Below are positions 39,137-53,002 of a stretch of DNA of 64,000 bases, piece by piece. The stretch is from NCBI GenBank assembly GCA_045593265.1, contig JAZNWH010000105.1:19216-83215 (forward strand), given 5' to 3'. The notes beneath the pieces were generated by a model. The model was not told where the DNA came from. It saw only the letters and a program-made list of their open reading frames with translations, and searched no databases. Made by a program: the position numbers and the translations under genes. This DNA comes from Clostridia bacterium. Lineage in GTDB: Bacteria > Bacillota > Clostridia > RGIG6154. Numbering within the stretch: the first letter of the stretch is position 1; every line of letters starts with the position of its first letter.

Positions 39137-40651
39137 TCATTTGCTGTTACGAGTAGCATTAAATAAAGCCTCATGTATATTCCAATCACGGGAAACTAAA
39201 AGTTCTTCGGCTTCATTTTCATTTATCTTCAGTATTTCGCAAATCATAGCTACAGCTCTTTTCTTCAGTTTTATGTTTGATGGATTCATATGTGTCATAT
39301 AGTTTTGCCAAGTGCATCCCATTTTAACAAAAACTGCAGTAGAAAACATATTAAGTATCATTTTCTGGGCACTTCCTGCTTTCATTCGGGTAGAGCCTTT
39401 GATGACCTCTGCACCTGTCAACGCCTCTATTGCTATATCGGATAAATCTGCCATTTCTGTATCAAGGTTGTTGACGATTGCTCCCACCTTACAACCACAC
39501 TCTTTAGCTTTTTCCATAAATGCAACTACAAATGGTGCACGTCCTGCAGCAGAAATTCCGATAATTAAATCGTTTTTTGTACAGTTTTGTTTTTCAAATG
39601 CTGCAACACCTGCCTGGCGATTGTCTTCGCAACCTTCTGAGGCATTGGTAATGGCTTTTTCTCCTCCCGCAATTACAGCAGTTATGGTTTCTCTTGAAAC
39701 ACCATATGTCGGTGGACATTCTGCCGCATCGGCTACAGCCAGACGACCACTTGTGCCTGCACCACAGTATATAATACGTCCACCATTTTTCAAAGCTTCT
39801 ACCCCTGCATCAACTAATTTTGCAACCTGTGGAATACAGCTCTTAACAATTGCAGAAACTGATGCATCCTCTCTTTGAATTATTCGTAAAATTGATTGGG
39901 TTGAACCATCTGCTATTCTGTCAGAACGAATATTTCGTGTTTCGGTACGAACATAATTATTATCCCCTTTTTTAGGTATAAAGCTGTTATAATAACGAGT
40001 GATGGCTATAGGATTTGTAATAGCCTTTCCTATGACAACAGCATCTGCTCCTATATTAAAGGCTTCTCTTATATCCTCGCTGCCCCAGATACGCCCTTCT
40101 GCCACAACCTTACAAGGAAGTTTAGCATCAACAATCTGAGATAACAATGTAAAATCAGGCACATACAATTCGTCATCGGTATGTAATGCACCGGGAATAT
40201 ATCCTGCCAATGTAGTGGATACTGCATCAACTCCCATATTTGCAGCGTTAACTGCTTCTTCAAAAGTTGAAATGTCTGCCATAACAGGAATACCAAGTTC
40301 TTCGTGAATACGACGAATTAGTTCTCTGCGTTCTTCTGCAATATCGCTGGGGTAAAAGGTTGCGTCAAGGGCAATAATGCTTGCACCTGCCTCGTATATT
40401 TTTTTAGCACCTTCAAAATCAGGTGTGATTACTGTTCTGCCTGTGGAGTCTTTACGTTTATCAATACCGATAATAGGAATTGAAACACGTTTACGCATAG
40501 CACTTATGTCCTCTACACCGTTGGCACGTATTGCTGATGCACCTCCAATAGCAGCAGACTCTGCCATAAGTGCAAGTGCCTGAGAATTGCGGAAAGGGTT
40601 TCCTTCAAGTGCCTGTGCAGACACAATTAATCCTGTTGGAAAGTCAATCAT
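39137..40651 (-). CDS. bifunctional fusion: N-acetylmannosamine-6-phosphate 2-epimerase (NanE) domain + N-acetylmuramic acid 6-phosphate etherase (MurQ, SIS) domain
   Basis: Single 504-aa ORF. Residues 1 to about 225 are NanE-like (GLIVSAQ, AIRANGV, IPIIGIDKR, SIIALDATF, VSTTLAGY). Residues 228-504 are MurQ-like (TETRN..., GGRIIYCGAGTSGRLAVADAAECPPTYGV). Confidence 0.8.
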   Translation of the reverse strand: MIDFPTGLIVSAQALEGNPFRNSQALALMAESAAIGGASAIRANGVEDISAMRKRVSIPIIGIDKRKDSTGRTVITPDFEGAKKIYEAGASIIALDATFYPSDIAEERRELIRRIHEELGIPVMADISTFEEAVNAANMGVDAVSTTLAGYIPGALHTDDELYVPDFTLLSQIVDAKLPCKVVAEGRIWGSEDIREAFNIGADAVVIGKAITNPIAITRYYNSFIPKKGDNNYVRTETRNIRSDRIADGSTQSILRIIQREDASVSAIVKSCIPQVAKLVDAGVEALKNGGRIIYCGAGTSGRLAVADAAECPPTYGVSRETITAVIAGGEKAITNASEGCEDNRQAGVAAFEKQNCTKNDLIIGISAAGRAPFVVAFMEKAKECGCKVGAIVNNLDTEMADLSDIAIEALTGAEVIKGSTRMKAGSAQKMILNMFSTAVFVKMGCTWQNYMTHMNPSNIKLKKRAVAMICEILKINENEAEELLVSRDWNIHEALFNATRNSK

Positions 40652-41580
40652 TTATCTTTCGCTCCTTTAATATATAAATCTTTTGCAATTTTAAAAGTTC
40701 CTTTAATAAGACCGTCAGAAACATAGTGTATTTTAACATTGGGCAAAATTTGACTTACTGCAGCTTCAAAATACTCTTTCCAGAATTTACAGGAATGAAT
40801 AAGACCTCCCGTAACAACAATATTTGGAATTTCTCCTGTAAGCTTTTTCGCAGTACATACAACCAATTCCGAAAGCTTTTCACCGGAATACTTAAATATA
40901 TCAAGAGCTGTTTTATCGCCCTTTTCTGCAAATTTTGCAACTATTTTCGACAGAGAGGCAATGTTTTGCCTGTCAAGAGGATAAAGATTTCCTCGTATCT
41001 GGTCTCTTTTGTCTCTGTAAACTGTTGGGTCATCAGTTGCAGAAAGGGGTCTTATGCAATTACACAGTTCCTGTGTGAGAGGAGACAATTCTTCTGTATT
41101 ATCCAGTGCACGCAAACTCATACGAATTGCCTGAAGTCCGATATCATAGCCACTTCCGTCATCTCCTATATTTATTCCCCATCCACCTGTGATTACAAAA
41201 CCATTATCCGATTTTCCAACTGCAATTGCTCCCGTTCCTGCCATAAGAACAATGGGAGCATTATATTCTTCTCCTAATGCATAGGCAGCAGTACCTTCTG
41301 ATTCACGAAAAATTTTTAGTGGTGTATCAGGGAAAAACTTTTTGAAACAAAGTTTAACCTGCTCTGTGTTTCGTCCTCCAAGATTTATGGAAACAGCTCC
41401 GATATTTTCTTTATCTGGGATTTCGTTAATCTGTTTTTCAAGAGAAGGAAGTTCCAAAGTACTATCTACAGCACTTGCAATTCCACCTGAAACAGACTCA
41501 TGTATTATATTTCCTTCTATGTCTGTTATTTTAAGTCGTGTATTGGTACCACCAATATCAGCGATAAATAGATGTTTCAT
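40648..41580 (-). CDS. murK: BadF/BadG/BcrA/BcrD-type ATPase, MurNAc/GlcNAc kinase (MurK-like)
   Basis: 310 aa. N-terminal LFIADIGGTNTR and a DGSG motif. MurQ context as in the Clostridium murK locus. Confidence 0.65.
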   Translation of the reverse strand: MKHLFIADIGGTNTRLKITDIEGNIIHESVSGGIASAVDSTLELPSLEKQINEIPDKENIGAVSINLGGRNTEQVKLCFKKFFPDTPLKIFRESEGTAAYALGEEYNAPIVLMAGTGAIAVGKSDNGFVITGGWGINIGDDGSGYDIGLQAIRMSLRALDNTEELSPLTQELCNCIRPLSATDDPTVYRDKRDQIRGNLYPLDRQNIASLSKIVAKFAEKGDKTALDIFKYSGEKLSELVVCTAKKLTGEIPNIVVTGGLIHSCKFWKEYFEAAVSQILPNVKIHYVSDGLIKGTFKIAKDLYIKGAKDK

Positions 41581-41592
41581 ATTTCTCCTTTC

Positions 41593-43482
41593 TTAAAACA
41601 ATCCTTTTTTCAAAGCAACACCAAAGCCAAGACCCATAAGAATTTCAGCTACAGTCCATCCGCTTTCTATACAGCATGGCCCCCAACCCACATCGTGAGG
41701 CATACCATATATTTCCATACGCTTAAGGTCAAGGCATCTTGCCCATGCACCATCATTTTTTTTATCATCGCTTACAATTTGTGCATCTGACATAAACTTA
41801 GCTATATCTTCCCATTTTTTCAGGAAGATTACATCATTGGTTACATAATAAGCATAAGAAAACCCTAAAGGCAACCAATTAAGAGAATACAGCATCTCAG
41901 CTATTTCATTTCCATTATCTGCAAGCATAGAAGATTCTGTGCCTGCTGTTCTGCTTCTATATGCTGTATAGCCAGGGTCAACTTCGGTATATCCACCGGT
42001 TTTATGGCGATAGATTTCAAGACGCTGACAAACATCATAGAGCCATTGTTTATGTTCTTCACTTCCTGTAACCTGATAAAGGCACGCAAGTGGAAAAATG
42101 AGTCTGCACAATTCTTCCGTTTCGCTTATTGCACGCATAGTTTCGGGATATACTCCCATAATGGTTGACAAGCCTTTTACAGCCGTTTCCTTGTATATTT
42201 CCTTGTGGTTGAGCTGATATGCAAGAAGAAGTGCAGCGCTGTAGTAGGCATTACGATGTGCACAGTACTGATTTGAAGGTTTTGATGTCATTTCCTTTAT
42301 TTTTTCATCAGTAAGATAGCTTGTATGAACACCATGTTCCATAAGTCCGTCAGTACCCGTTATACTGATAAGAAAATCAAGAGCTGCTTCAACCTGAGGC
42401 AACAGACTCATATCTTTGGTATACATCATATAAAATAAAGTACTGATAACAGCTCTTCCTGTATCATCTCCGTATACGGTACACCACGCACCTTCTGTCC
42501 ATCTGAGCATTCCTGAAAATTTCCCTGTTTTAATCTGCATTTTATCAAAAATGAAACTCGAAAGATTCTTGTAAACAGCAAGGGATTCTTTGTTATTCGA
42601 CAGAATATAATCAAAAAGATATGCACCTGCTATCTCCCCTACACAATCAACACGAACATTGTTTCTTTCAGCCTGAACACCATCAGGAGTAATTGGATGA
42701 GCCATACCCTCTCTTGCACCATCTTTTCCGTTGTCAAGAAGAATGTTGCATCCATCAAACCATGCCATTCCTCTGTCAAAAGTGCCCTGTGCATCACAGT
42801 TACTGCCAAGAGTATAGTATGGAGCGGGCATCTGTATTTGCTCTACTCCTAAATGATTAAGAATAATTTCAAGAATTCCACACCAGGATTCAAAAGGAGC
42901 AAATCTTGCTTTTACAAAGTTTGAAATACGAAATGAACATACAAGTCTGTTTTCGTTATAATACCAGAGTCGCCAGTCTCTTGTTGCAATCTCATCAGTT
43001 TTTATTTTTGACGCATCTATGTGGTCGTGGCTGACAATATGCCCACCATTATAGAGTATTGGATATGCATTATCAGGTAAAAAAATATGGTTGCACCCTC
43101 TATTTGCCTGGCTGTCAAGCAAATCACCAAATGTCAAGCTTTCGGTATCGCTTCCGATATATACATATCTGTTCATAGTATCACTCATAGAATCTCTGCC
43201 ATCATTGTAATCATCACCATCGGTATAAGTATATCCAAGGCTTGCACACCATTCGTAGAATATCGGCTTACCACTTTCAGCGAACTCCTCCGTTTTAACA
43301 CGAAGTGATGCACTAAGCACACGTGGTCTTGTATTCTCTGTTCCACAAAGCAAAGCTATAGCCGAATAGACAGATAAATCTTTGAGTTCAGCTTCCTTGA
43401 ACGAGAGCATTTCACATTTTCCTGAGTTCATTAAAATATTGCTTAAATCACTTTTGTTATCACTTATAATCAATATAGACAT
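41593..43482 (-). CDS. uncharacterised 629-aa cytoplasmic protein (N-terminal ~220-aa domain + probable alpha/alpha-toroid-like C-terminal domain)
   Basis: No signal peptide, TM or recognisable catalytic motif. First gene of the MurNAc operon, divergent from murR. Contains a GWGPCCIESGW segment. Confidence 0.6.
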   Translation of the reverse strand: MSILIISDNKSDLSNILMNSGKCEMLSFKEAELKDLSVYSAIALLCGTENTRPRVLSASLRVKTEEFAESGKPIFYEWCASLGYTYTDGDDYNDGRDSMSDTMNRYVYIGSDTESLTFGDLLDSQANRGCNHIFLPDNAYPILYNGGHIVSHDHIDASKIKTDEIATRDWRLWYYNENRLVCSFRISNFVKARFAPFESWCGILEIILNHLGVEQIQMPAPYYTLGSNCDAQGTFDRGMAWFDGCNILLDNGKDGAREGMAHPITPDGVQAERNNVRVDCVGEIAGAYLFDYILSNNKESLAVYKNLSSFIFDKMQIKTGKFSGMLRWTEGAWCTVYGDDTGRAVISTLFYMMYTKDMSLLPQVEAALDFLISITGTDGLMEHGVHTSYLTDEKIKEMTSKPSNQYCAHRNAYYSAALLLAYQLNHKEIYKETAVKGLSTIMGVYPETMRAISETEELCRLIFPLACLYQVTGSEEHKQWLYDVCQRLEIYRHKTGGYTEVDPGYTAYRSRTAGTESSMLADNGNEIAEMLYSLNWLPLGFSYAYYVTNDVIFLKKWEDIAKFMSDAQIVSDDKKNDGAWARCLDLKRMEIYGMPHDVGWGPCCIESGWTVAEILMGLGFGVALKKGLF

Positions 43483-43665: not shown

Positions 43666-44508
43666 ATGAGGAAAGATCTTGTCCAATTTATCACAGAAAA
43701 ATATACATCTATGACAAATAGTGAAAAAACTATAGCAGATTATATAATCAACAATCTCGAACACGTGCTTACCATAAGTGTGCAGGCACTGTCTGCAGAA
43801 CTAAACATCAGTGTCGCAACAATTGTTCGTTTTGCTCAACATTTAGGCTTTGACGGATATAAAGAATTCAGGCTGTGTCTTGCACAACTTGGTAATGAAC
43901 ACGAAGATTTTATTTTAGATTTTCACAAAAACGAAAACTCCCCCGATGCACAGATTTCAAAAATGCTTATATCCTGTTCAGAATGTTTAAACCTTACACG
44001 TCAAAATATAGATTATGATACTTTAACTGATATTGTCCAGGCAATTCACAGTGCTGAAAAAATAGCCTTCTTCGGTGTCGGAACTTCATATATAGTTTGT
44101 CAGGATGCATCCGTTAAATTCAAACGAATAGGAATTAATGCAGAATGTGCCTGTGAATCAACATCGGCATCACTCATTTTACTAAACATGAAAAAAGGTG
44201 ATGTGGTTTTTGGTATTTCTCATTCGGGAAACAACGAAACTGTAGAGAAAATATTAAAAATGGCACAAAAGATGGGACTGACAACAATTGCAGTAACAAC
44301 TTTCAGCAACACTAATATTTGCAAAACAGCAGATTACACGTTATTTACACAAACAAGAGAAAGTCCTTTGCACAAAATTGCCATCACATCCCGTGTAAGT
44401 CAATTCGCTATGATGGATTCTCTGTTTATGGCATATCTTACAATCAATTATGACCAGTGTATCAGTAACATCGAAAAAACTCATGAAATAAGTGAAGGTT
44501 TAAAATAG
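43666..44508 (+). CDS. murR: RpiR family transcriptional regulator (MurR-like; HTH_6 + SIS)
   Basis: 280 aa. Confidence 0.8.
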   Translation: MRKDLVQFITEKYTSMTNSEKTIADYIINNLEHVLTISVQALSAELNISVATIVRFAQHLGFDGYKEFRLCLAQLGNEHEDFILDFHKNENSPDAQISKMLISCSECLNLTRQNIDYDTLTDIVQAIHSAEKIAFFGVGTSYIVCQDASVKFKRIGINAECACESTSASLILLNMKKGDVVFGISHSGNNETVEKILKMAQKMGLTTIAVTTFSNTNICKTADYTLFTQTRESPLHKIAITSRVSQFAMMDSLFMAYLTINYDQCISNIEKTHEISEGLK

Positions 44509-45940: not shown

Positions 45941-46059
45941 ATATCTGTGTGCTCCTTGACTTTTATATTTAAATTAAGTATAATTTAACAAATAGGAAAA
46001 ATCAATATTTGCGAAAATATTTCAAAATAATCAACAAAAATCACGAAGGAAGCGATTAT

Positions 46060-46806
46060 ATGTATCAACAGGAGAGAATGGACAAAATAATGAAAATACT
46101 AAAGGAAAATCACTATGTAACCGTAGATTTTCTTGTAAGTGAAATAAAATACAGTCCCGCAAGTATAAGAAGGGATTTAACTCTTCTTGAAAAACAAGGA
46201 CTCATTACAAGAAGCTACGGTGGTGTTACATATAAAGATGCCAATATCTCTCCATTCAGATTTCGTCAGCACAGTATGAAATCCGCAAAAAACGCAATCG
46301 CTCAAAAAGCTGCAACCCTCGTTAAAAATGGTGATTTTGTTTTTATTGATGGTTCATCAACCACTCAATATATGGGACACTTTCTGACGGACAAGAAAGG
46401 TATAACCGTACTTACCTGTAATATGCTTCTTGCGGATTTTTTAAGCGAGCATGGCATAAACACTTATTGTACAGGTGGACAAATTGTGGAATACCCCGGA
46501 ATTTTAGGCGGCAGCTATATGCTGGATACATTGTCAAAATTCAACATAGATATAGCTTTCTTTTCCTCCACCGCATTTAGTTCCAAAGGGCAAATTATAT
46601 CTCTTGGTGAAAGCGGTTTGCTTAATCATCAATCATTAAGGAAGAATTCAAAGAAACTTGCATACCTCTGCGGAAGTGATAAATTTGATACTAACGGAAA
46701 ATTTGTAAGTCTTACATTAAACGATATTGATTACTTTATAAGTGATAAAAATCTTCCCGAAAGTCTGAAACAAAATTACAAAACCACATTTATATGTACG
46801 AAATAG
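46060..46806 (+). CDS. DeoR/GlpR family transcriptional regulator
   Basis: Start at MYQQERMDKIMKIL after a GAAGGAAG RBS. HTH plus DeoR C-terminal sugar-binding domain. Confidence 0.8.
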   Translation: MYQQERMDKIMKILKENHYVTVDFLVSEIKYSPASIRRDLTLLEKQGLITRSYGGVTYKDANISPFRFRQHSMKSAKNAIAQKAATLVKNGDFVFIDGSSTTQYMGHFLTDKKGITVLTCNMLLADFLSEHGINTYCTGGQIVEYPGILGGSYMLDTLSKFNIDIAFFSSTAFSSKGQIISLGESGLLNHQSLRKNSKKLAYLCGSDKFDTNGKFVSLTLNDIDYFISDKNLPESLKQNYKTTFICTK

Positions 46807-46825
46807 ATACTATTTAAATATAAAG

Positions 46826-46857
46826 AATGCTCGCCTACTATTTGATAGACGAGCATT
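46826..46857. terminator. stem-loop after the DeoR gene / spoIVB remnant
   Basis: AATGCTCG-16 nt-CGAGCATT. Confidence 0.4.
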
Positions 46858-46861
46858 TAAT

Positions 46862-46998
46862 TTATTTGATTTTCTCTTCTTCTGCCAGCATATTCTCGAT
46901 GAATATCCCGTATCCTCTCGTTGGGTCATTCACAAAAACGTGTGTTACAGCGCCGACAAGTTTCCCATTCTGAATCACTGGAGACCCAGACACAAGTG
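46862..46998 (-). pseudogene. truncated 3' remnant (~44 codons) of a spoIVB-like S55 peptidase gene
   Basis: Minus-strand translation ...[43 protein letters not shown]. Intact gene at 51005-51135 encodes ...[44 protein letters not shown]. Nucleotide identity is about 80%, with mainly synonymous differences. Confidence 0.65.
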
Positions 46999-47001
46999 AT
47001 G

Positions 47002-47871
47002 TCAATATGGGACAACAATATTTTTTGCCACTTTGATTTCTTCATCTGTTGGTAAGGTCTGTGGCAGCGTATTTTTCATATTTAACGCAGCATATTTTGA
47101 GCCAGCATAATTATGATACGGCAAAACTTTTACCCTTGTTATATTTTGAAGCTGTTTTAAAGATTCTGCAATTTTTTCAATTTGGTCAGAATTATATTCA
47201 GGTACATATGGTATACGAATTTCTGTTTCTTTGCCCAAAGAATCGATATATTTAAGATTATCCAATATAATTTTATTGCTTTGTCCTGTGCATTTAACAT
47301 GCACATTCTCATCAATTGCCTTAATATCATATAAAAATGTATCGGTGTAAGGCAAAACCTTATCAATACTTTCTTTTGGTACATATCCACAGGTATCAAC
47401 TGCTGTATTTATACCTTCTTTTTTTAACATATGTAAAAGCTCTGCACAAAAATCTGCCTGCATAAGACATTCTCCGCCCGAAAGTGTTACTCCGCCGCCG
47501 CTTGTTTCATAAAAGTCCTTATCTTCAAGTAATATCGGCAAAAGTTCATCTACTGTCATTTCCTTGCCGTAAAATTTCAGTGCTTCGCCAAGACAAGCCT
47601 TTTCACATTTTCCGCAAGCAACACATAAATCTCTTTCAAAAATATGACCTTCTCGTGTGATTTTGTGTGCACCTGATGGGCATACAAAAACGCATTCGCC
47701 GCAACTGATGCACTTGTTTTCGTAATATGCAAGCTGAGGCTTAAAATCAATGCTTTCGGGATTGTGGCACCACACACATTTTAGTGGACAGCCTTTGAAA
47801 AATACCGTTGTTCTTATTCCGTCACCATCGTGTACAGCAAAATGTTTTATATCAGAAATTAATGCTTTCAT
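47002..47871 (-). CDS. glycyl-radical enzyme activating protein (radical SAM, with two ferredoxin-like 4Fe-4S motifs)
   Basis: 289 aa. Radical [11 protein letters not shown], then [12 protein letters not shown] and [11 protein letters not shown]. Overlaps the GRE by 4 nt. Confidence 0.85.
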
Positions 47872-50105
47872 TTAGCATTCTCCGCTCTTAAAATATATGC
47901 ATCCTGCTCTTTTTTGCTCATATTATTCCAAAGAGTATTCCAACCACAAACTCTAACCTGCAGATTTTGATATTTTTCCGGATTTTTTTGTGCATCACGC
48001 AGAGTGTCTGTATTAAAAATATTGAACTGAATTGACTGACCGCCTTTGTTAAGATAGGTCATAAGAACACCTTTTAGCACATTTAATCCATCCTCGCCTT
48101 CAACTGCACTCGGGTGAAGCATAACATCAACACAAAACGATTCGTGATAATCAGACGGAATGAGCTTAGTCGCAGACTCAACCAAAGCCGTAACACCTTT
48201 TTTATCCATACTGACAACGGGAGAAGCATTTTTAGACAGTTCTTCTCCTTTTAATCTTCCATCCGGCAAAGCTCCGGTTTTTTCTCCCTGGTTTATAAAA
48301 GCACGGGCAGTGTGGAATATCGCTTTATACACACCGCCTCTGCCATTAGGTACATTATTCACCTTATTTGCAAAATAGCTTGCCATAGCTGATGCGTAAG
48401 TATCTGCCACAGCATCGTTGTTACCATATTTATGTGGCGATTTTTTTATTTGAATCTGTAATTTTTCGTAACCCTTCCAGTTAACTTCCAAAACCTTTGC
48501 AAGCTCAGACAGCGTTATTTCTTTTTTATCAAAAACAAATTCTTTTACCGCCATAATGCTGTCAACCGCACTGGCAAAACCGCAGTTAAGCATCGCATTG
48601 TTATTGAACTTAACACCACCGCCGTATCCGTCTCTGCCGTTTTTCAAAGAAGTTTCAATTGTCGCAGAATACATAGATGACGGATTTACAAATGCAAGAA
48701 AACGTTCTGCATCATTTGTGATTTTCATACTTTGCTCAATGAGATATTCCCATTGTTTTAAAAAGGCAAAATAGAAATCTTCAAATGTTTTGATTTCTGA
48801 AATCTCACCTGTTTTTACACCAACCTGTTTTTTAATCCCATAATCATACCCATTAGTAAACACAAACTCCACGGCTTTTGCCACATTTACATATCCCGAA
48901 GATGAACAAACCTCATTTGCCCTGACTCCTGTTTCATAACATCCTCTGATATCATAGTTAATCGCTTCTTCATAAGTAGCTCCATAACCCATTATAGCTT
49001 TTATCATAGCAGGCTCACAACAAAATACAATGCTGGCATTTTTTCGGCGAACCATATCAAAAGCTTTATTTAAGATTTTATCAGGTGTATTTTTATTTAT
49101 CTTCAACTGTATTTTAGGGTTATAGATTTCAAGCTCATCATATACATCAAGAATTTCGTATGAAAGTTCGTTGTACTTCGTGTTGCTGTTTAAATCGGTG
49201 CCACCCATATAAAACGGTTGCCCCCAATAGTTGCCTATGGCAGACCACTGCATAAAAAAGTAAGATAAATAATTTCTTATATCCTCTTTTGTGCATTTCC
49301 CCGACTCCAGATCATTTTTATAAAATCCGTACAACGTATTATCAAGACCGTTGCCTAGAGAACGAACCTGATAACTGTCTATTGATTCAGATATTATAAA
49401 AAATATATAAATAAACTGTAATGCCTCATAAAAACAAGTTGGATGTCCATCACGAAGATTTTTTAAACACTCAGCTATTTGAGGTGCCTTTTCAAAGGTT
49501 AATTCGCAAGCAGTACGATACATTCTGTCAATTAAATCAATAATTGCTGTGTATTGAATTTCAATGCCATCGAAAAATGCTTCTGTTTCTTTAGTCATAG
49601 TTTTGTTCTCACTGTGCATTTTACGGTATTCTCTTGCTCTTTCACGAATGCCAACAAACCCTAATTCCATTAAAGATTTCCAGTCAGGAACAACATGATC
49701 ATAGTCTGTACGTAGTGTTACTGCACCTGAATTGTTAAAATCATTGGAGCACTCCATAGTCTCGGGATTTCTTAAGGTGTGTGATTCTTTTTCCCATTTT
49801 TTGAAGGTGCTTTCGTTAGCTAAACGATTCAGCGAATAAAGACCTACAAAATAATCGTGCTCATTTATATACAAACGTTGATTTTCAAGAACATATTTAA
49901 TGGCTTTTGCTCTTACAATCGGGTGAGGTAAATTTTCGTTCTCCTTCGAAAGCTGTTCAAGTCCTTTTAACAGTTCCTCATCAACTATCCCACTTTCCTC
50001 TATATAGCCTGTTCCGTGATATGCCATACGGCTAAATGCATCAAATTCTTTTTCGGGATCGTGATATTTTCGTTCAATAAAATATCTGTCTGCAGAATTA
50101 ATCAT
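47868..50105 (-). CDS. glycyl radical enzyme, PFL2/glycerol-dehydratase-like clade, substrate unknown
   Basis: 745 aa from MINSADRY; RBS AGGTGGAG. The ORF could extend to 50129. C-terminal glycyl motif LQVRVCGWNT. Cys loop IRGCYETG sits 332 residues upstream of the radical Gly. Confidence 0.85.
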   Translation of the reverse strand: MINSADRYFIERKYHDPEKEFDAFSRMAYHGTGYIEESGIVDEELLKGLEQLSKENENLPHPIVRAKAIKYVLENQRLYINEHDYFVGLYSLNRLANESTFKKWEKESHTLRNPETMECSNDFNNSGAVTLRTDYDHVVPDWKSLMELGFVGIRERAREYRKMHSENKTMTKETEAFFDGIEIQYTAIIDLIDRMYRTACELTFEKAPQIAECLKNLRDGHPTCFYEALQFIYIFFIISESIDSYQVRSLGNGLDNTLYGFYKNDLESGKCTKEDIRNYLSYFFMQWSAIGNYWGQPFYMGGTDLNSNTKYNELSYEILDVYDELEIYNPKIQLKINKNTPDKILNKAFDMVRRKNASIVFCCEPAMIKAIMGYGATYEEAINYDIRGCYETGVRANEVCSSSGYVNVAKAVEFVFTNGYDYGIKKQVGVKTGEISEIKTFEDFYFAFLKQWEYLIEQSMKITNDAERFLAFVNPSSMYSATIETSLKNGRDGYGGGVKFNNNAMLNCGFASAVDSIMAVKEFVFDKKEITLSELAKVLEVNWKGYEKLQIQIKKSPHKYGNNDAVADTYASAMASYFANKVNNVPNGRGGVYKAIFHTARAFINQGEKTGALPDGRLKGEELSKNASPVVSMDKKGVTALVESATKLIPSDYHESFCVDVMLHPSAVEGEDGLNVLKGVLMTYLNKGGQSIQFNIFNTDTLRDAQKNPEKYQNLQVRVCGWNTLWNNMSKKEQDAYILRAENAK

Positions 50106-50217
50106 ATAATCTCCACCTTTCAAACGCATTTTAGCATAAAAAGAAATTTAATACAATGAATTAAAAGAAACATTTGACTTTTTAGAAACAAAATTATATA
50201 ATAAATACGGTGATTAT

Positions 50218-50988
50218 ATGATTAATTTTATGAAACATGATTTTATTATTGATAAAATTGAGCTTGCATGTATAGTAAAAGCCGGAAAAGGTTCAATGAT
50301 TCACAAAAACAGAGCAAGCAATGGATTGGCTCTGTTTTTAGGTGGCGAAAGAACTTTCTGCTTTGATGAGAAAAAGTTTAAGGTTACCAAAAACACAATC
50401 GTGTATTTTCCAAAAGGCTCAAACTACGTGATTAAAGAAAGAGAAGCTTCTGATTGCTATGCAATTAACTTTCAAATGCCTGATAACGTATTTTTTGAGC
50501 CGTTTGCATTTAAAATAAAAAATCTTAACACATATTTAGAAAACTTCAAAAACAGTCAGAAAATATGGGATAAAAAATCTACGGGGTATTTTTCGAAAGT
50601 TAAATCTGAGCTTTACAGCATAATTTACAATATGCAGTCAGAATATCTTATTCCGTACGGTAATTCATCTGTAATTAAGCCAGCTATTGATTATATACAC
50701 TCGAATTATTATAAAGAGAACATAAGTGTTGTGCATCTGGCATCACTCTGCGATATCAGCGTTGTGCATTTAAGAAACTGCTTTATTAAAAATTTCGCCC
50801 TATCGCCTGTTAAATATATAAATTTTCTTAAGCTAACTCGTGCAAAAGAGTTGCTTGAGTCAGGAATGTATACTGTTGGTGATGCTTGCTTCTTATCCGG
50901 CTATAATGACGAAAGCTATTTTTCCCGTGAATTTAAAAAGTCTTTTAAAAAATCACCAAAAGAATATGCAAAAGCATCCCGTAAATAG
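50218..50988 (+). CDS. AraC family transcriptional regulator (cupin-like sensor + HTH), divergent from GRE
   Basis: 256 aa with a C-terminal AraC HTH. Confidence 0.8.
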   Translation: MINFMKHDFIIDKIELACIVKAGKGSMIHKNRASNGLALFLGGERTFCFDEKKFKVTKNTIVYFPKGSNYVIKEREASDCYAINFQMPDNVFFEPFAFKIKNLNTYLENFKNSQKIWDKKSTGYFSKVKSELYSIIYNMQSEYLIPYGNSSVIKPAIDYIHSNYYKENISVVHLASLCDISVVHLRNCFIKNFALSPVKYINFLKLTRAKELLESGMYTVGDACFLSGYNDESYFSREFKKSFKKSPKEYAKASRK

Positions 50989-51004
50989 CAGGATGCTTTT
51001 TCTG

Positions 51005-52063
51005 TCACTTTATTCTTTCAGCCTCAGCCAGCATATTCTCGATGAATATTCCATAACCTCTCGTTGGGTCATTTACAAAAACATGGGTTACTGCACCTAT
51101 CAGTTTCCCATTTTGAACTAAAGGTGAACCCGACATTCCCTGCACGATGCCTCCTGTCAGGTTCAGGAGTGTTTTGTCGGTAATTTTAATTGTAAAGCCT
51201 TTTATAGTATTATCACCGCCACGAAGTATTTTACTGATTTTTACGCTATATTCTTTTACTTCTCCTCCTGCTATATTACTCAGAAGCATTGCCTCGCCCT
51301 CTGTAATTTCCTGAGAACTTGCAATCTCGATTTGAGGTGAATTGATATCTATGGACAGATTTCCTGCTATTCCGTTTGGTGAATTAGTTTTTATAGAACC
51401 TATAATCTTTCCGTTATTGCCGAAAGAGCCTGTTATCTCCCCTGTTTTACCTAAGGTCGGTTTTGTTATTTTAAAATTATCTGCAAAAAAACATTCTGCA
51501 AAAGAAATAGTAAAAGACACATTCGTATCAACATCATTTATAGGATGACCCAATGCCATAAACTTTTTGTTTTGCGTATCATAAAAAGTAACTGTTCCTA
51601 TTCCTGCAGTACTGTCCCGAACCCAGAGTCCTGCTCTTGTAGTATTTTCTTTAGTTATATGTGGTTCTAATGAAACCGTAAGTTTTTTTCCTTCTCTTAT
51701 TATATCTAATTTAACTTGTTTTTTATTTTGAATTTTTTCAGAAAAATCCGAAATCGAAAAGAGCTTTTTGTTATCTACGTGGGTTATATAATCACCCTTT
51801 TTTAATCCTGCTTCTTTTCCCGGAGAAACGTTTCCGTTATTCGTTTTTAATTCAGTTATATCTACTATAAGTATTCCGTCTGAGAAAAGCTTGATTCCTG
51901 CTATTTGCCCACCAGGAACAACTGTTCTTGGTGCGTAAACAGCTTCTGCAACGGACACATTATCTTTAAAGCCATTGAGACACGCGTTAAAAAAAAGCGC
52001 ACATAAAAGAAAAATTATCAAAGATAAACAAATTTTCTTTTTCGTAATTATCATTCCTTTCAT
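51005..52063 (-). CDS. spoIVB: SpoIVB-like S55 serine peptidase (PDZ + peptidase)
   Basis: 352 aa. N-terminal TM/signal, PDZ domain, GMSGSPLV serine motif. Confidence 0.7.
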   Translation of the reverse strand: MKGMIITKKKICLSLIIFLLCALFFNACLNGFKDNVSVAEAVYAPRTVVPGGQIAGIKLFSDGILIVDITELKTNNGNVSPGKEAGLKKGDYITHVDNKKLFSISDFSEKIQNKKQVKLDIIREGKKLTVSLEPHITKENTTRAGLWVRDSTAGIGTVTFYDTQNKKFMALGHPINDVDTNVSFTISFAECFFADNFKITKPTLGKTGEITGSFGNNGKIIGSIKTNSPNGIAGNLSIDINSPQIEIASSQEITEGEAMLLSNIAGGEVKEYSVKISKILRGGDNTIKGFTIKITDKTLLNLTGGIVQGMSGSPLVQNGKLIGAVTHVFVNDPTRGYGIFIENMLAEAERIK

Positions 52064-52113
52064 TTTTTATTTGATATTAAGTTTTGTAAATTTAAAATAT
52101 ATATGCTGTCAAA

Positions 52114-52159: not shown

Positions 52160-53002
52160 TTATAAAATTATTGTCTTATGTCTTGTTACATGGCAGCTTA
52201 TATTTACAGCAACAGGAAGTCCTGCAATATGAGTGGGATAAGTTTCTATATTAACTCCCAATGCAGTTGTTTTTCCTCCCAAGCCTGAAGGGCCGATGCC
52301 AAGAGCGTTAATTTTTTCCAATAATTCATTTTCAAGCTTGGCATAATATAAATTTTCATTTGACGTATCAATGTTCCTTGTAAGTGCTTTTTTGGCAAGA
52401 ATTGCACATTTTTCAAAGCTTCCTCCTATTCCTACACCAACTACTATAGGCGGACAAGGATTGCTTGATGCTTTTTTTACTGTTTCAAGCACAAAATTTT
52501 TGACTCCCTCTTCACCATCTGATGGCTTTAACATTTTTACTGCACTCATATTTTCACTGCCAAAGCCTTTGGGTGCTATTGTTATTTCAATATTATCCCC
52601 GTCAACAATTTCATAGTGAATTACTGCAGGTGTGTTATCGTTTGTGTTTTTTCTTTCTAATGGGTCGCTTACAACTGAACATCTTAAGTATCCGTTTATA
52701 TACCCATTTCTTACACCCTTATTAATAGCATCGGTTATATTTTCACCTTCAATAAAAACATTATTACCTATTTTCACGAAAAATATTGCCATTCCTGTAT
52801 CCTGGCAAACAGGTACATTTTCATTTTCAGCAATTTTATAATTATTAATTATATCCGTTAAAATTTCTTTGGCAATTTGTTTATTTTCATCTTTATATGC
52901 TTTATCAAGTGCACATCTAATATCATCCGGAAGATAACAGTTTGCTTCTATACAAAGCTTTTCAACTGCACTTGCTATAAATTCAGAATTAATTTTTCTC
53001 AT
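52160..53002 (-). CDS. Fe-S hydro-lyase alpha subunit (class I fumarate hydratase / L(+)-tartrate dehydratase alpha-type)
   Basis: 280 aa. Conserved Cys ligands in the FumA N-domain family. No beta-subunit gene is adjacent. Confidence 0.7.

Follow-up and report, generated by a model that had tools for sequence, protein, structure and literature searches.

A glycyl radical enzyme from a large uncharacterised GCYE/LQVRVCGWN clade, with its activase and a divergent AraC-family regulator

The window, i.e. the whole 64,000-nt stretch of DNA analysed here, encodes a glycyl radical enzyme (GRE) that, judging from profile scores and alignments, belongs to no characterised GRE clade and represents one subfamily of a large uncharacterised one. 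Together with its activase and its own regulator, this oxygen-sensitive enzyme forms an intact, conserved module. Host-relevant anaerobic GRE reactions in gut microbiomes include the formation of TMA, H2S, p-cresol and skatole, as well as the use of hydroxyproline and anhydro-sugars. Entire GRE clades are still unassigned according to a 2026 review (PMC13450708), and the gene described here is an entry point to a very large one, known chiefly from metagenomes of gut, rumen and other anaerobic habitats.

The GRE coding sequence (47868..50105, minus strand) specifies 745 amino acids followed by a TGA stop. The first ATG in the list of open reading frames lies further upstream, at 50129, and would give a 753-aa frame (47868..50129). 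A strong ribosome-binding site, AGGTGGAG (50111-50118), is found 5 nt 5' of the ATG at 50105, and almost every homologue has a length of 745 aa; thus the shorter model, already chosen in the first-pass annotation, is the better one. Pfam recognizes the PFL-like barrel (PF02901, 1.4e-100) and a C-terminal Gly_radical domain (PF01228, 2.5e-21). The AF2 model (mean pLDDT 95.7) has the GRE fold, with TM-scores of 0.82-0.87 to the top-ranked solved PFL2-type GREs, and the protein has no extra domain or cofactor site. It had been described as compact, and it is indeed 20-100 aa below every solved PFL2-type GRE (native lengths of about 765-850). However, GDH and HypD exceed it by only 42-44 aa, of which about 27 fall N-terminal to His137, and the length is a trait of the clade. 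Across 40-58 kb of the window there is no GC anomaly that would point to horizontal transfer. Among GTDB species, 56 loci retain the 745-aa ORF (44-98% identity), as do 80 metagenome loci.

When judged against curated equivalog cutoffs, the NCBIfam scores of the protein fall far short of every named function. The HypD model gives 328 bits (cutoff 1100), HpfG 271 (1000), CutC 236 (1050) and the PflD-type model NF007437 214 (1109). The decarboxylases IAD and HPAD both give 187 (1100 and 1150), and TIGR01255 (PFL) gives 77 (994). The PFL2/glycerol dehydratase subfamily model TIGR01774 reaches 325 bits, below its cutoff of 678. The top PDB sequence match is HypD (272 bits), followed by AfPFL2 (246), with BSS and MasD at 168-180, and structural alignments to solved GREs have 20-26% identity. 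In a neighbour-joining (NJ) sketch with four partial references and without bootstrap, the enzyme stands apart from HypD, GDH, HpzG and AfPFL2. These results bear out the initial view of an enzyme outside the characterised clades: in scores, tree sketch and alignment there is neither tight clustering with any of them nor conservation of their specificity residues.

The Gly loop R718-V-C-G721-W722 (47940..47954, minus strand, translated from the exact coordinates) lies within the clade hallmark LQVRVCGWN and aligns with RVAGY of HypD and GDH, Gly721 being the predicted radical site. Across 137 clade sequences, R718 and G721 are invariant, and C720, W722 and N723 nearly so. The RVCGW motif noticed early on is present, but the label “atypical” does not hold: it is a clade hallmark within the accepted GRE fingerprint RVxG[FWY] (PMC13450708), AfPFL2 has RVAGW, and the Gly motif of class III RNR is RVCGY. 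The query also conforms to the extended fingerprint RVxG[FWY]x6-8[FL]x4Qx2[IV]x2R, which it reads as RVCGW-NTLWNN-M-SKKE-Q-DA-Y-IL-R; it retains the core RVxG[W]...Q...R, with deviations at two peripheral positions (Leu to Met, Ile to Tyr).

The Cys loop G388-C389-Y390-E391 (48933..48944, minus strand, likewise translated) aligns with the GCVE of HypD and GDH, so that Cys389/Glu391 correspond to Cys434/Glu436 and Cys433/Glu435, respectively. Cys389 is predicted to be the thiyl radical site, and Glu391 the general base. The loop and its 332-residue spacing from the radical Gly had been correctly recognized, but the original numbering (Cys397/Glu399) came from the 753-aa frame. Over 137 sequences C389, like G721, is invariant, and Y390, E391 and H137 are nearly invariant; Tyr390 is clade-specific. 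Alignment and translation place His137 in the stretch D134-Y-D-H137 (49695..49706, minus strand), opposite the essential His164 of GDH. Almost all clade members keep Asp134, a position taken by Gly in GDH and AfPFL2. Based on the roles of Cys, Glu and His described for GRE eliminases and isomerases (PMC13450708; PMC7077986), Gly721, Cys389, Glu391 and His137 match the catalytic set of GRE 1,2-eliminases and isomerases. C389-Y-E391 agrees with the CxE motif as defined for these enzymes, but the motif is not exclusive to them: it is also found in GRE decarboxylases (PMC13450708), and therefore does not fix the reaction class.

The clade, as defined in the present analysis, is marked by a Gly loop LQ[VI]R[VLI]CGWN, a Cys loop GC[YFW]E, Asp134-x-x-His137, Arg248-[ST] and a length of about 650-790 aa; the query carries every one of these hallmarks. 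It accounts for nearly all of the best 150 cluster representatives at 50% identity and occurs in more than 600 metagenome stretches. Its sources are almost all uncultured gut, rumen and other anaerobic assemblies, and its few named members are “hypothetical”. It is monophyletic in the NJ sketch (four partial reference sequences, no bootstrap). Six residues (Asp134, Arg248, Tyr390, Cys720, Trp722 and Asn723) are invariant or nearly so in more than 130 sequences that are about 30% identical. RVCGW, GCYE and the shorter length are traits of this large clade, and not peculiar to the query protein.

Two segments, both located by alignment and translation, hold candidate pocket residues. In the Q246-V-R248 loop (49362..49370, minus strand), Gln246 takes the position of HypD Asp278 and GDH Ser282 and is confined to the orthologue group. 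Arg248, conserved in almost every clade member, is missing from the other GREs aligned. In the H598-T-A600-R601 strand (48303..48314, minus strand), His598 stands at GDH Tyr640 and HypD Leu643, and Ala600 at HypD Thr645; both are candidate orthologue-specific specificity residues. Arg248, Gln246 and His598 are predicted to face the active site solely from their alignment with HypD and GDH. The candidate pocket (Tyr245, Gln246, Arg248, Tyr299, Tyr405, Lys594, His598 and Arg601) is polar and partly basic. HypD Asp278, Ser334, Phe340 and Thr645 and GDH Ser282, Asp447 and Tyr640 are all replaced or deleted in the query, and the aligned specificity positions match those of no known enzyme. The FCCEP segment also reported at first (residues 361-365; 49011..49025, minus strand) is confirmed by translation. 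Alignment and the AF2 model put it on a barrel strand, where GDH and HypD have (F/Y)YN(D/T)E. Its Cys pair is kept only in orthologues of at least 73% identity, with F[IVML]N[DE] elsewhere; since conservation stops at close orthologues, we rejected it as a functional Cys motif, and a catalytic or metal-binding element is unlikely.

The activase, a GRE-activating radical SAM enzyme of 289 aa (47002..47871, minus strand), passes TIGR02494 with 336 bits for a cutoff of 174 and carries a CX3CX2C motif and two ferredoxin-type CX2CX2CX3C motifs. Its start codon overlaps the stop codon of the GRE (ATGA), and by this arrangement it is translationally coupled to the GRE. About 145 nt 3' of the activase, a terminator-like hairpin (46826..46857, minus strand, from a consensus scan only), with a 13-bp stem and then a T-rich tail, bounds the two-gene operon. 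On the other side, an AraC-family regulator of 256 aa (50218..50988) is divergently encoded on the plus strand and occupies the same position in most of about 130 related loci. It has an HTH_18 domain at residues 175-252, and its N-terminal 150 aa or so, for which there is no Pfam match, are presumably the sensor domain. Both the pairing with a two-ferredoxin-motif activase and the neighbouring divergent AraC gene had been proposed from the outset, and both are confirmed.

The two transcription units share a 112-bp control region (50106..50217, both strands), whose elements are assigned putative roles from their sequence. On the minus strand, the operator-like direct repeats GTTTCTAAAAAGTCAA and GTTTCTTTTAATTCA (50174-50189 and 50157-50171) are followed by a -35-like TTGTAT (50151-50156), a 17-nt spacer, and the extended -10 TGCTAAAAT (50128-50136) of a probable GRE promoter. 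On the plus strand, TTGACT-17-TATAAT (50174-50202) lies 5' of the AraC gene. Comparison of this region across 10 orthologous loci shows conservation of AGTCAA and of a TGnTAnAAT block. The conserved operator-like repeat and the weak -35, with the activase and the divergent AraC gene, fit the substrate-inducible system that had been suggested, but the dehydratase or lyase chemistry suggested along with it would follow by analogy only.

Gene neighbourhoods offer a hint about the substrate. The order AraC< GRE> AE> (AE, activase) recurs among the related loci, and in about 12-14 of some 130 of them an SMP-30-type lactonase (SGL) and an EamA transporter are inserted between GRE and AE. These inserted genes form tight orthogroups (51-100% identity), whereas the GREs that they accompany share only 37-83% identity among themselves. 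Neither the 64,000-nt window nor most of the roughly 130 loci contain the lactonase and EamA genes, and the hint at a lactone-derived hydroxy acid may hold for part of the family only. Given the polar, partly basic candidate pocket and the orthologous lactonase and EamA genes that recur between GRE and activase, our best guess for the substrate is a hydroxy-carboxylic acid in equilibrium with its lactone, such as a plant-derived aldonic acid or another acid formed from a sugar. In most cassettes there is neither a transporter nor a downstream enzyme, so that a detoxifying or product-releasing role fits as well as catabolism. In 31 cases analysed with Pfam, the genes 3' of the operon are heterogeneous and carbohydrate-flavoured (RhaA, GH43, GH5, SASA esterase, MFS_2), with no consistent partner. 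A MATE transporter was considered as a conserved partner and rejected, the MATE genes of different loci being about 25% identical and not orthologous. The neighbours in a human-gut subgroup are an EAL protein, ABC permeases, GH35 and an M42 peptidase. For distant clade members, gene context is mostly on contigs too short to inform.

We lean, with moderate confidence, towards a module that is self-contained, induced by its substrate and used in catabolism or detoxification, in which the GRE would perform a 1,2-elimination or a ring-opening isomerisation, with a hydroxy acid or lactone as the guessed substrate. AraC would bind a small-molecule inducer and activate the weak-(-35) GRE-activase promoter via the conserved GTTTC-N-TCA direct repeats. 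As expected from its family, the activase would then use its [4Fe-4S]/SAM site to abstract a hydrogen atom from Gly721. By homology with GDH, PD, HypD, PflD and YbiW, the radical would move to Cys389, whose thiyl would take a hydrogen from a hydroxylated carbon in a polar substrate. Glu391, aided by His137, would deprotonate the substrate hydroxyl to give a ketyl radical, and the adjacent C-O bond (less likely C-N or C-S) would be cleaved, the net result being a 1,2-elimination or a ring-opening isomerisation. The product radical would finally regain its hydrogen from Cys389.

Other chemistries have to be weighed against this elimination or isomerisation. Decarboxylation of a carboxylic acid, with a volatile or toxic product that exits, sometimes via a neighbouring EamA-type exporter, is an unlikely alternative, even though several features would suit such a reaction. 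CxE occurs in decarboxylases too, and HPAD, PAD, IAD and AAD likewise need just a GRE and its activase, as in this minimal two-gene operon without downstream enzymes. A carboxylate could be held by Arg248, which is conserved in the clade, a free acid would be released by a neighbouring lactonase or esterase, and EamA-family proteins are often exporters. However, the HPAD and IAD scores lie below those of the eliminase models as well as below their own cutoffs, the candidate pocket is mostly polar rather than an aryl-binding set, the small-subunit gene is absent, and His137 is common to the C-O-cleaving GDH. Still less credible, indeed very improbable, is a mis-sorted pyruvate or 2-ketoacid formate-lyase or an X-succinate synthase. 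The Pfam name “PFL-like” and the presence of BSS and MasD among the PDB matches might suggest one, but the loop has a single Cys (GC) instead of the CC pair of PFL, TIGR01255 remains at 77 bits against 994, BSS and MasD reach only 168-180 bits, the candidate pocket is polar, and genes for accessory beta or gamma subunits are absent. We rejected identification as PFL, X-succinate synthase or AARE because of the single Cys, the low scores, the missing accessory subunits and the use of Gly as the radical residue.

The six clade-wide residues raise the question of a new GRE reaction type, in which they would serve a different strategy of radical handling or substrate activation. They are absent from HypD, GDH, AfPFL2 and HpzG, the clade is separate in the NJ sketch, and the literature searched holds nothing relevant on the RVCGW motif or on a GRE paired with a gluconolactonase or lactonase. 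Against this, the fold and the Cys/Glu/His/Gly set are canonical, the x of both RVxG and CxE varies within the accepted fingerprint, and the protein has neither an additional domain nor a further cofactor site; we thus regard a new reaction type as rather unlikely. A wider reading is possible, if doubtful: the GCYE/LQVRVCGWN clade might be a new functional GRE class beside the eliminases, decarboxylases and isomerases, which would have diversified in gut and rumen Clostridia into well over 100 cassettes, every one with a single enzyme under AraC control and a different plant- or host-derived polar metabolite to convert. For the present subfamily, the substrate would be a lactone-derived hydroxy acid, and the clade-conserved Arg248, Asp134 and Tyr390 would set a common way of anchoring substrates or handling the radical that known GREs lack.

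The GCYE and RVCGWN hallmarks make the clade easy to mine. The AraC sensor of each cassette, beside a conserved operator-like site, offers a practical reporter route to the substrate ahead of anaerobic enzymology, and the recurring lactonase and EamA genes help to limit which substrates to try first. Should the substrate turn out to be an abundant dietary compound, gut metabolism in herbivores and humans would gain a new anaerobic route from this family.

Comparison with named enzymes shows how far the resemblance goes. HypD (trans-4-hydroxy-L-proline dehydratase, PDB 6VXC/6VXE) is both the best PDB match and the best NCBIfam model; CxE is conserved, and HypD Tyr450 corresponds to Tyr405. However, its essential Asp278 is replaced by Gln246 and Thr645 by Ala600, and its Ser334-Asp339-Phe340 loop is 7-8 residues shorter in the query. 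GDH (C. butyricum, PDB 1R8W/1R9D) and 1,2-propanediol dehydratase (PD, 5I2G) share the ten-stranded barrel (TM-score 0.85-0.87), but only 23-25% identity, and no microcompartment or diol-pathway genes are seen near the query. GDH also has a G-C-x-E Cys loop, an RVxG[aromatic] Gly loop and a neighbouring ferredoxin-domain activase gene, and its His164 and Tyr339 correspond to His137 and Tyr299. On the other hand, Ser282, Asp447 and Tyr640 of GDH become Gln246, Ser402 and His598, and the query is 42 aa shorter, with Tyr for Val in CxE and Cys/Trp for Ala/Tyr in the Gly loop. PflD and YbiW (1,5-anhydrohexitol-6-phosphate C-O lyases) and HplG are only 20-24% identical, and the query cassette lacks sugar-phosphate genes (PTS, aldolase). 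They are nonetheless close in structure (TM-score 0.84-0.85) and size (765 aa for PflD), and CxE-dependent beta-scission of a C-O or C-N bond beside a hydroxylated carbon, on carbohydrate-type substrates, is counted among the features that would be shared. AfPFL2 (Archaeoglobus fulgidus, PDB 2F3O), whose function is debated, is 26% identical and has GCVE instead of GCYE, Ile for Arg248 and Gly for Asp134. In the NJ sketch without bootstrap it branches with the characterised eliminases, and not with the RVCGWN clade, but like the query it has a Trp after the radical Gly (RVAGW) and a His at the position of His137.

The glycyl radical enzyme (GRE) is encoded on the minus strand. The ORF listing gives 47868..50129 (753 aa), and a 745-aa model starting at 50105 is preferred because AGGTGGAG lies 5 nt upstream of that ATG and nearly all homologues are 745 aa long. 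The 47868-50105 coordinates of the first-pass annotation are thus the better gene model; its Cys397 and Glu399 are real residues numbered in the 753-aa frame, and correspond to Cys389 and Glu391 of the 745-aa protein, whose numbering is used throughout. Pfam recognizes PFL-like (1.4e-100) and Gly_radical (2.5e-21) domains, and exact translation recovers the three motifs reported earlier: the GCYE Cys loop with Cys389 and Glu391 (48933-48944), the RVCGW Gly loop with Gly721 (47940-47954), and the FCCEP segment (49011-49025), all on the minus strand. The NCBI record reads “hypothetical protein [Clostridia bacterium]”, and GC content around the gene is even (0.31-0.39).

The enzyme belongs to no characterised family, as the first-pass annotation had proposed for its specificity. 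No NCBIfam equivalog is reached, the scores being well under each curated cutoff: HypD (trans-4-hydroxy-L-proline dehydratase) 328 bits against 1100, HpfG 271 against 1000, HpsG 255 against 1000, CutC 236 against 1050, PflD-type 214 against 1109, HPAD 187 against 1150, IAD 187 against 1100, and PFL 77 against 994. The protein also falls short of the broad PFL2/glycerol-dehydratase subfamily model (325 against 678). The top matches among all PDB sequences are HypD (272 bits), Archaeoglobus fulgidus PFL2 (AfPFL2; 246), glycerol dehydratase (GDH; 243), and propanediol dehydratase (230). An AlphaFold2 model built from a 137-sequence alignment (mean pLDDT 95.7, pTM 0.94) superposes on the top-ranked solved PFL2-type GREs with TM-scores of 0.82-0.87 at 20-26% identity, with no single nearest neighbour evident, and no counterpart was found among the characterised GREs tabulated in a June 2026 review (PMC13450708). 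In an indicative neighbour-joining sketch, made without bootstrap from partial reference sequences taken from the alignment, the GCYE/RVCGWN clade forms one group apart from HypD, GDH, HpzG, and AfPFL2, and from neighbouring GRE paralogues of related genomes (RVCGF, RVTGY, RVSGF, and YjjI-like).

The clade is large, and we found no characterised member in it. An exhaustive phmmer scan covered 1.84 billion cluster representatives; among the best 150 matches (280-950 bits), all but the few lowest outscore every characterised GRE, and the full-length ones, mostly 650-790 aa, nearly all carry both LQ[VI]R[VLI]CGWN and GC[YFW]E. A metagenome scan for Q[VI]R[VL]CGWN gave at least 600 matches. In 120 close homologues (71-100% identity), the Gly loop is RVCGW in 117 and RICGW in the other three, and DIRGCYETG is kept in 114. 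Seven clade members (P0152, P0159, P0160, P0164, P0167, P0205, and P0242; 941-1563 aa in total) have very long N-terminal extensions, with the GRE domain C-terminal. RVCGW was originally called atypical, a description that overstates the case: it conforms to the accepted RVxG[FWY] fingerprint (PMC13450708) and is a clade hallmark, sharing its Trp with AfPFL2 (RVAGW) and its Cys with class III RNR (RVCGY). “Compact” is correct in direction and modest in degree: compared with this enzyme, GDH and HypD are 42-44 aa longer (~27 of these N-terminal to His137, with 4-8 more in the loop before the conserved GG) and PflD is ~20 aa longer. FCCEP stands where GDH and HypD have a strand reading (F/Y)YN(D/T)E; only orthologues of at least 73% identity keep it, the wider clade having F[IVML]N[DE], and it was therefore rejected as a functional Cys motif.

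Alignment to HypD, GDH, and other references shows that the catalytic set is conserved: Gly721, Cys389 (HypD Cys434, GDH Cys433), Glu391 (HypD Glu436, GDH Glu435), and His137 (GDH His164). In HypD the corresponding His and Glu are both essential (PMC7077986), and in glycerol dehydratase they serve as acid and base (PMC13450708). Across the 137-sequence alignment, G388, C389, R718, and G721 are invariant, D134, H137, R248, P297, Y390, E391, C720, W722, and N723 are at least 90% conserved, and position 249 is almost always Ser or Thr. The positions that decide specificity in known GREs are altered. Gln246 replaces HypD Asp278/GDH Ser282, the loop that holds Ser334, Asp339, and Phe340 in HypD is shorter, GDH Asp447 becomes Ser402, GDH Tyr640/HypD Leu643 becomes His598, and HypD Thr645 becomes Ala600; Tyr299 matches GDH Tyr339, and Tyr405 matches HypD Tyr450. 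Gln246, Tyr299, His598, Ala600, and Phe603 are kept in orthologues down to ~38% identity and vary elsewhere in the clade, the pattern that would be expected of specificity residues. Arg248 and Asp134 occur throughout the clade, and HypD, GDH, AfPFL2, and HpzG lack both. Since Arg248 lies two residues past the HypD Asp278-equivalent position, it may be within reach of a substrate anion.

The partners described earlier are present. The 289-aa radical-SAM activase (47002-47871, minus strand) has a CX3CX2C motif, two CX2CX2CX3C motifs, and a TIGR02494 score of 336 bits (cutoff 174); its ATG overlaps the GRE stop (ATGA), and a consensus scan places a terminator-like hairpin 3′ of it (46826-46857, minus strand). 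The 256-aa AraC-family gene, identified by domain search, diverges from the GRE (50218-50988, plus strand). Ten orthologous GRE-AraC intergenic regions align well, with conserved blocks that include the GRE ribosome-binding site. On the GRE strand these are GTTTC(T/G)AAA(A/T)AGTCAA (50174-50189), a degenerate second copy 18 nt downstream, GTTTCTTTTAATTCA (50157-50171), a weak -35 TTGTAT (50151-50156), and, after a 17-nt spacer, an extended -10, TGCTAAAAT (50128-50136). AraC-activated promoters usually have direct repeats flanking a weak -35, and the predicted GRE promoter matches this layout. Read on the opposite strand, AGTCAA supplies the -35 element (TTGACT) of the AraC gene's best promoter-like site, so the shared block would allow AraC autoregulation. 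A 19-nt inverted repeat (95% complementary; GGAGATTATATGATTAATT at 50096-50114 and GGTGATTATATGATTAATT at 50209-50227) spans the ribosome-binding site and start codon of both genes; both proteins begin M-I-N, and close orthologous loci have kept both start regions.

Members of the family were found in 56 GTDB species representatives. Each of these is an uncultured metagenome-assembled genome from the gut of ruminants, horses, deer, or humans, and most belong to Clostridia, Oscillospiraceae, or Acutalibacteraceae. When about 136 related loci are compared, just two genes accompany the GRE almost everywhere, namely the divergent AraC gene and the activase gene. The window has the minimal operon, GRE-activase; about a dozen loci have GRE, SMP-30/gluconolactonase-like protein, EamA transporter, and activase, and variants carry EamA alone, or a GDSL, beta-lactamase-fold esterase, or GH-like gene. 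The lactonase-like proteins (51-100% identity, median 59%; nearest solved relatives regucalcin/SMP-30 lactonases, 99 bits) and EamA proteins (52-100%) are tight orthogroups, while the accompanying GREs are only 37-83% identical to one another; the association thus extends over the full range of the family. No lactonase homologue lies in the 64 kb of the window. The remaining neighbours are mixed and carbohydrate-flavoured. Some loci, this one among them, have MATE genes close by; these are not orthologues of one another and were rejected as a conserved partner. A 42%-identical member (L139, 8001-12102) has GCKE with RVCGW and retains the complete GRE-lactonase-EamA-activase operon, so Tyr390 is not strictly required in that context.

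The spoIVB-adjacent locus is variable in GRE cassettes. L003 (6050-16517), a same-species locus with a 98%-identical GRE, has three tandem AraC/IclR-GRE-activase cassettes (680-aa RLYGF with GCxE unmatched, 745-aa RVCGW, and 710-aa RVSGF/GCNE), L001 (2349-15124) has four GRE genes, and at 46000-52100 the window carries the RVCGW cassette alone, with DeoR and MATE genes after it. Eight loci (L020, L029, L035, L068-L071, and L077) contain a co-resident paralogue family, a further uncharacterised GRE type with an RVCGF Gly loop and GCWD, GCEE, or no GCxE motif; in several of them it has its own AraC gene and activase and a beta-lactamase-fold (esterase-like) gene nearby. Elsewhere in the window, a 280-aa Fumerase-domain gene (52160-53002, minus strand; class I fumarate hydratase/tartrate dehydratase alpha subunit) has spoIVB and RNase R as neighbours and no adjoining beta-subunit gene, as in L003. 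A 629-aa ORF (41593-43482, minus strand) with no Pfam or NCBIfam match adjoins an RpiR/SIS regulator gene (43666-44508) and has a 638-aa homologue at the equivalent position in L003. What looks like an amino-sugar catabolic cluster comprises a 504-aa fusion of N-acetylmannosamine-6-phosphate epimerase (NanE) and SIS/GKRP-like domains (39137-41580, minus strand), then a BadF/BcrAD-type ATPase gene, with the RpiR gene ~2 kb off, past the 629-aa ORF.

On balance we lean toward an inducible GRE module with chemistry like that of the CxE eliminases and isomerases. The Cys389 thiyl radical would abstract hydrogen at a carbinol carbon, Glu391 and His137 would assist ketyl formation, beta-scission of the adjacent C-O bond would follow, and the hydrogen would be given back. 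The substrate would be a polar, probably anionic compound; given the lactonase and EamA link, the best guess, still a tentative one, is a hydroxy acid derived from a lactone. The clade-specific invariant residues suggest GRE chemistry of a new type, which we regard as a minority possibility. Somewhat less probable is a decarboxylase: CxE and a minimal operon would suit one, but the scores and the polarity of the pocket fit less well. PFL or X-succinate synthase is rejected as very improbable: the loop has a single Cys, scores are low, and accessory subunits are absent at this locus.

The combination of GRE, activase, and regulator is a well-known system type. The architecture is canonical throughout and the existence of unassigned GRE clades was already known, which limits the value of the gene; what adds to it is its place as a representative of a very large, easily recognised, gut-enriched clade, whose AraC sensor, lying within the cassette, makes substrate discovery tractable.
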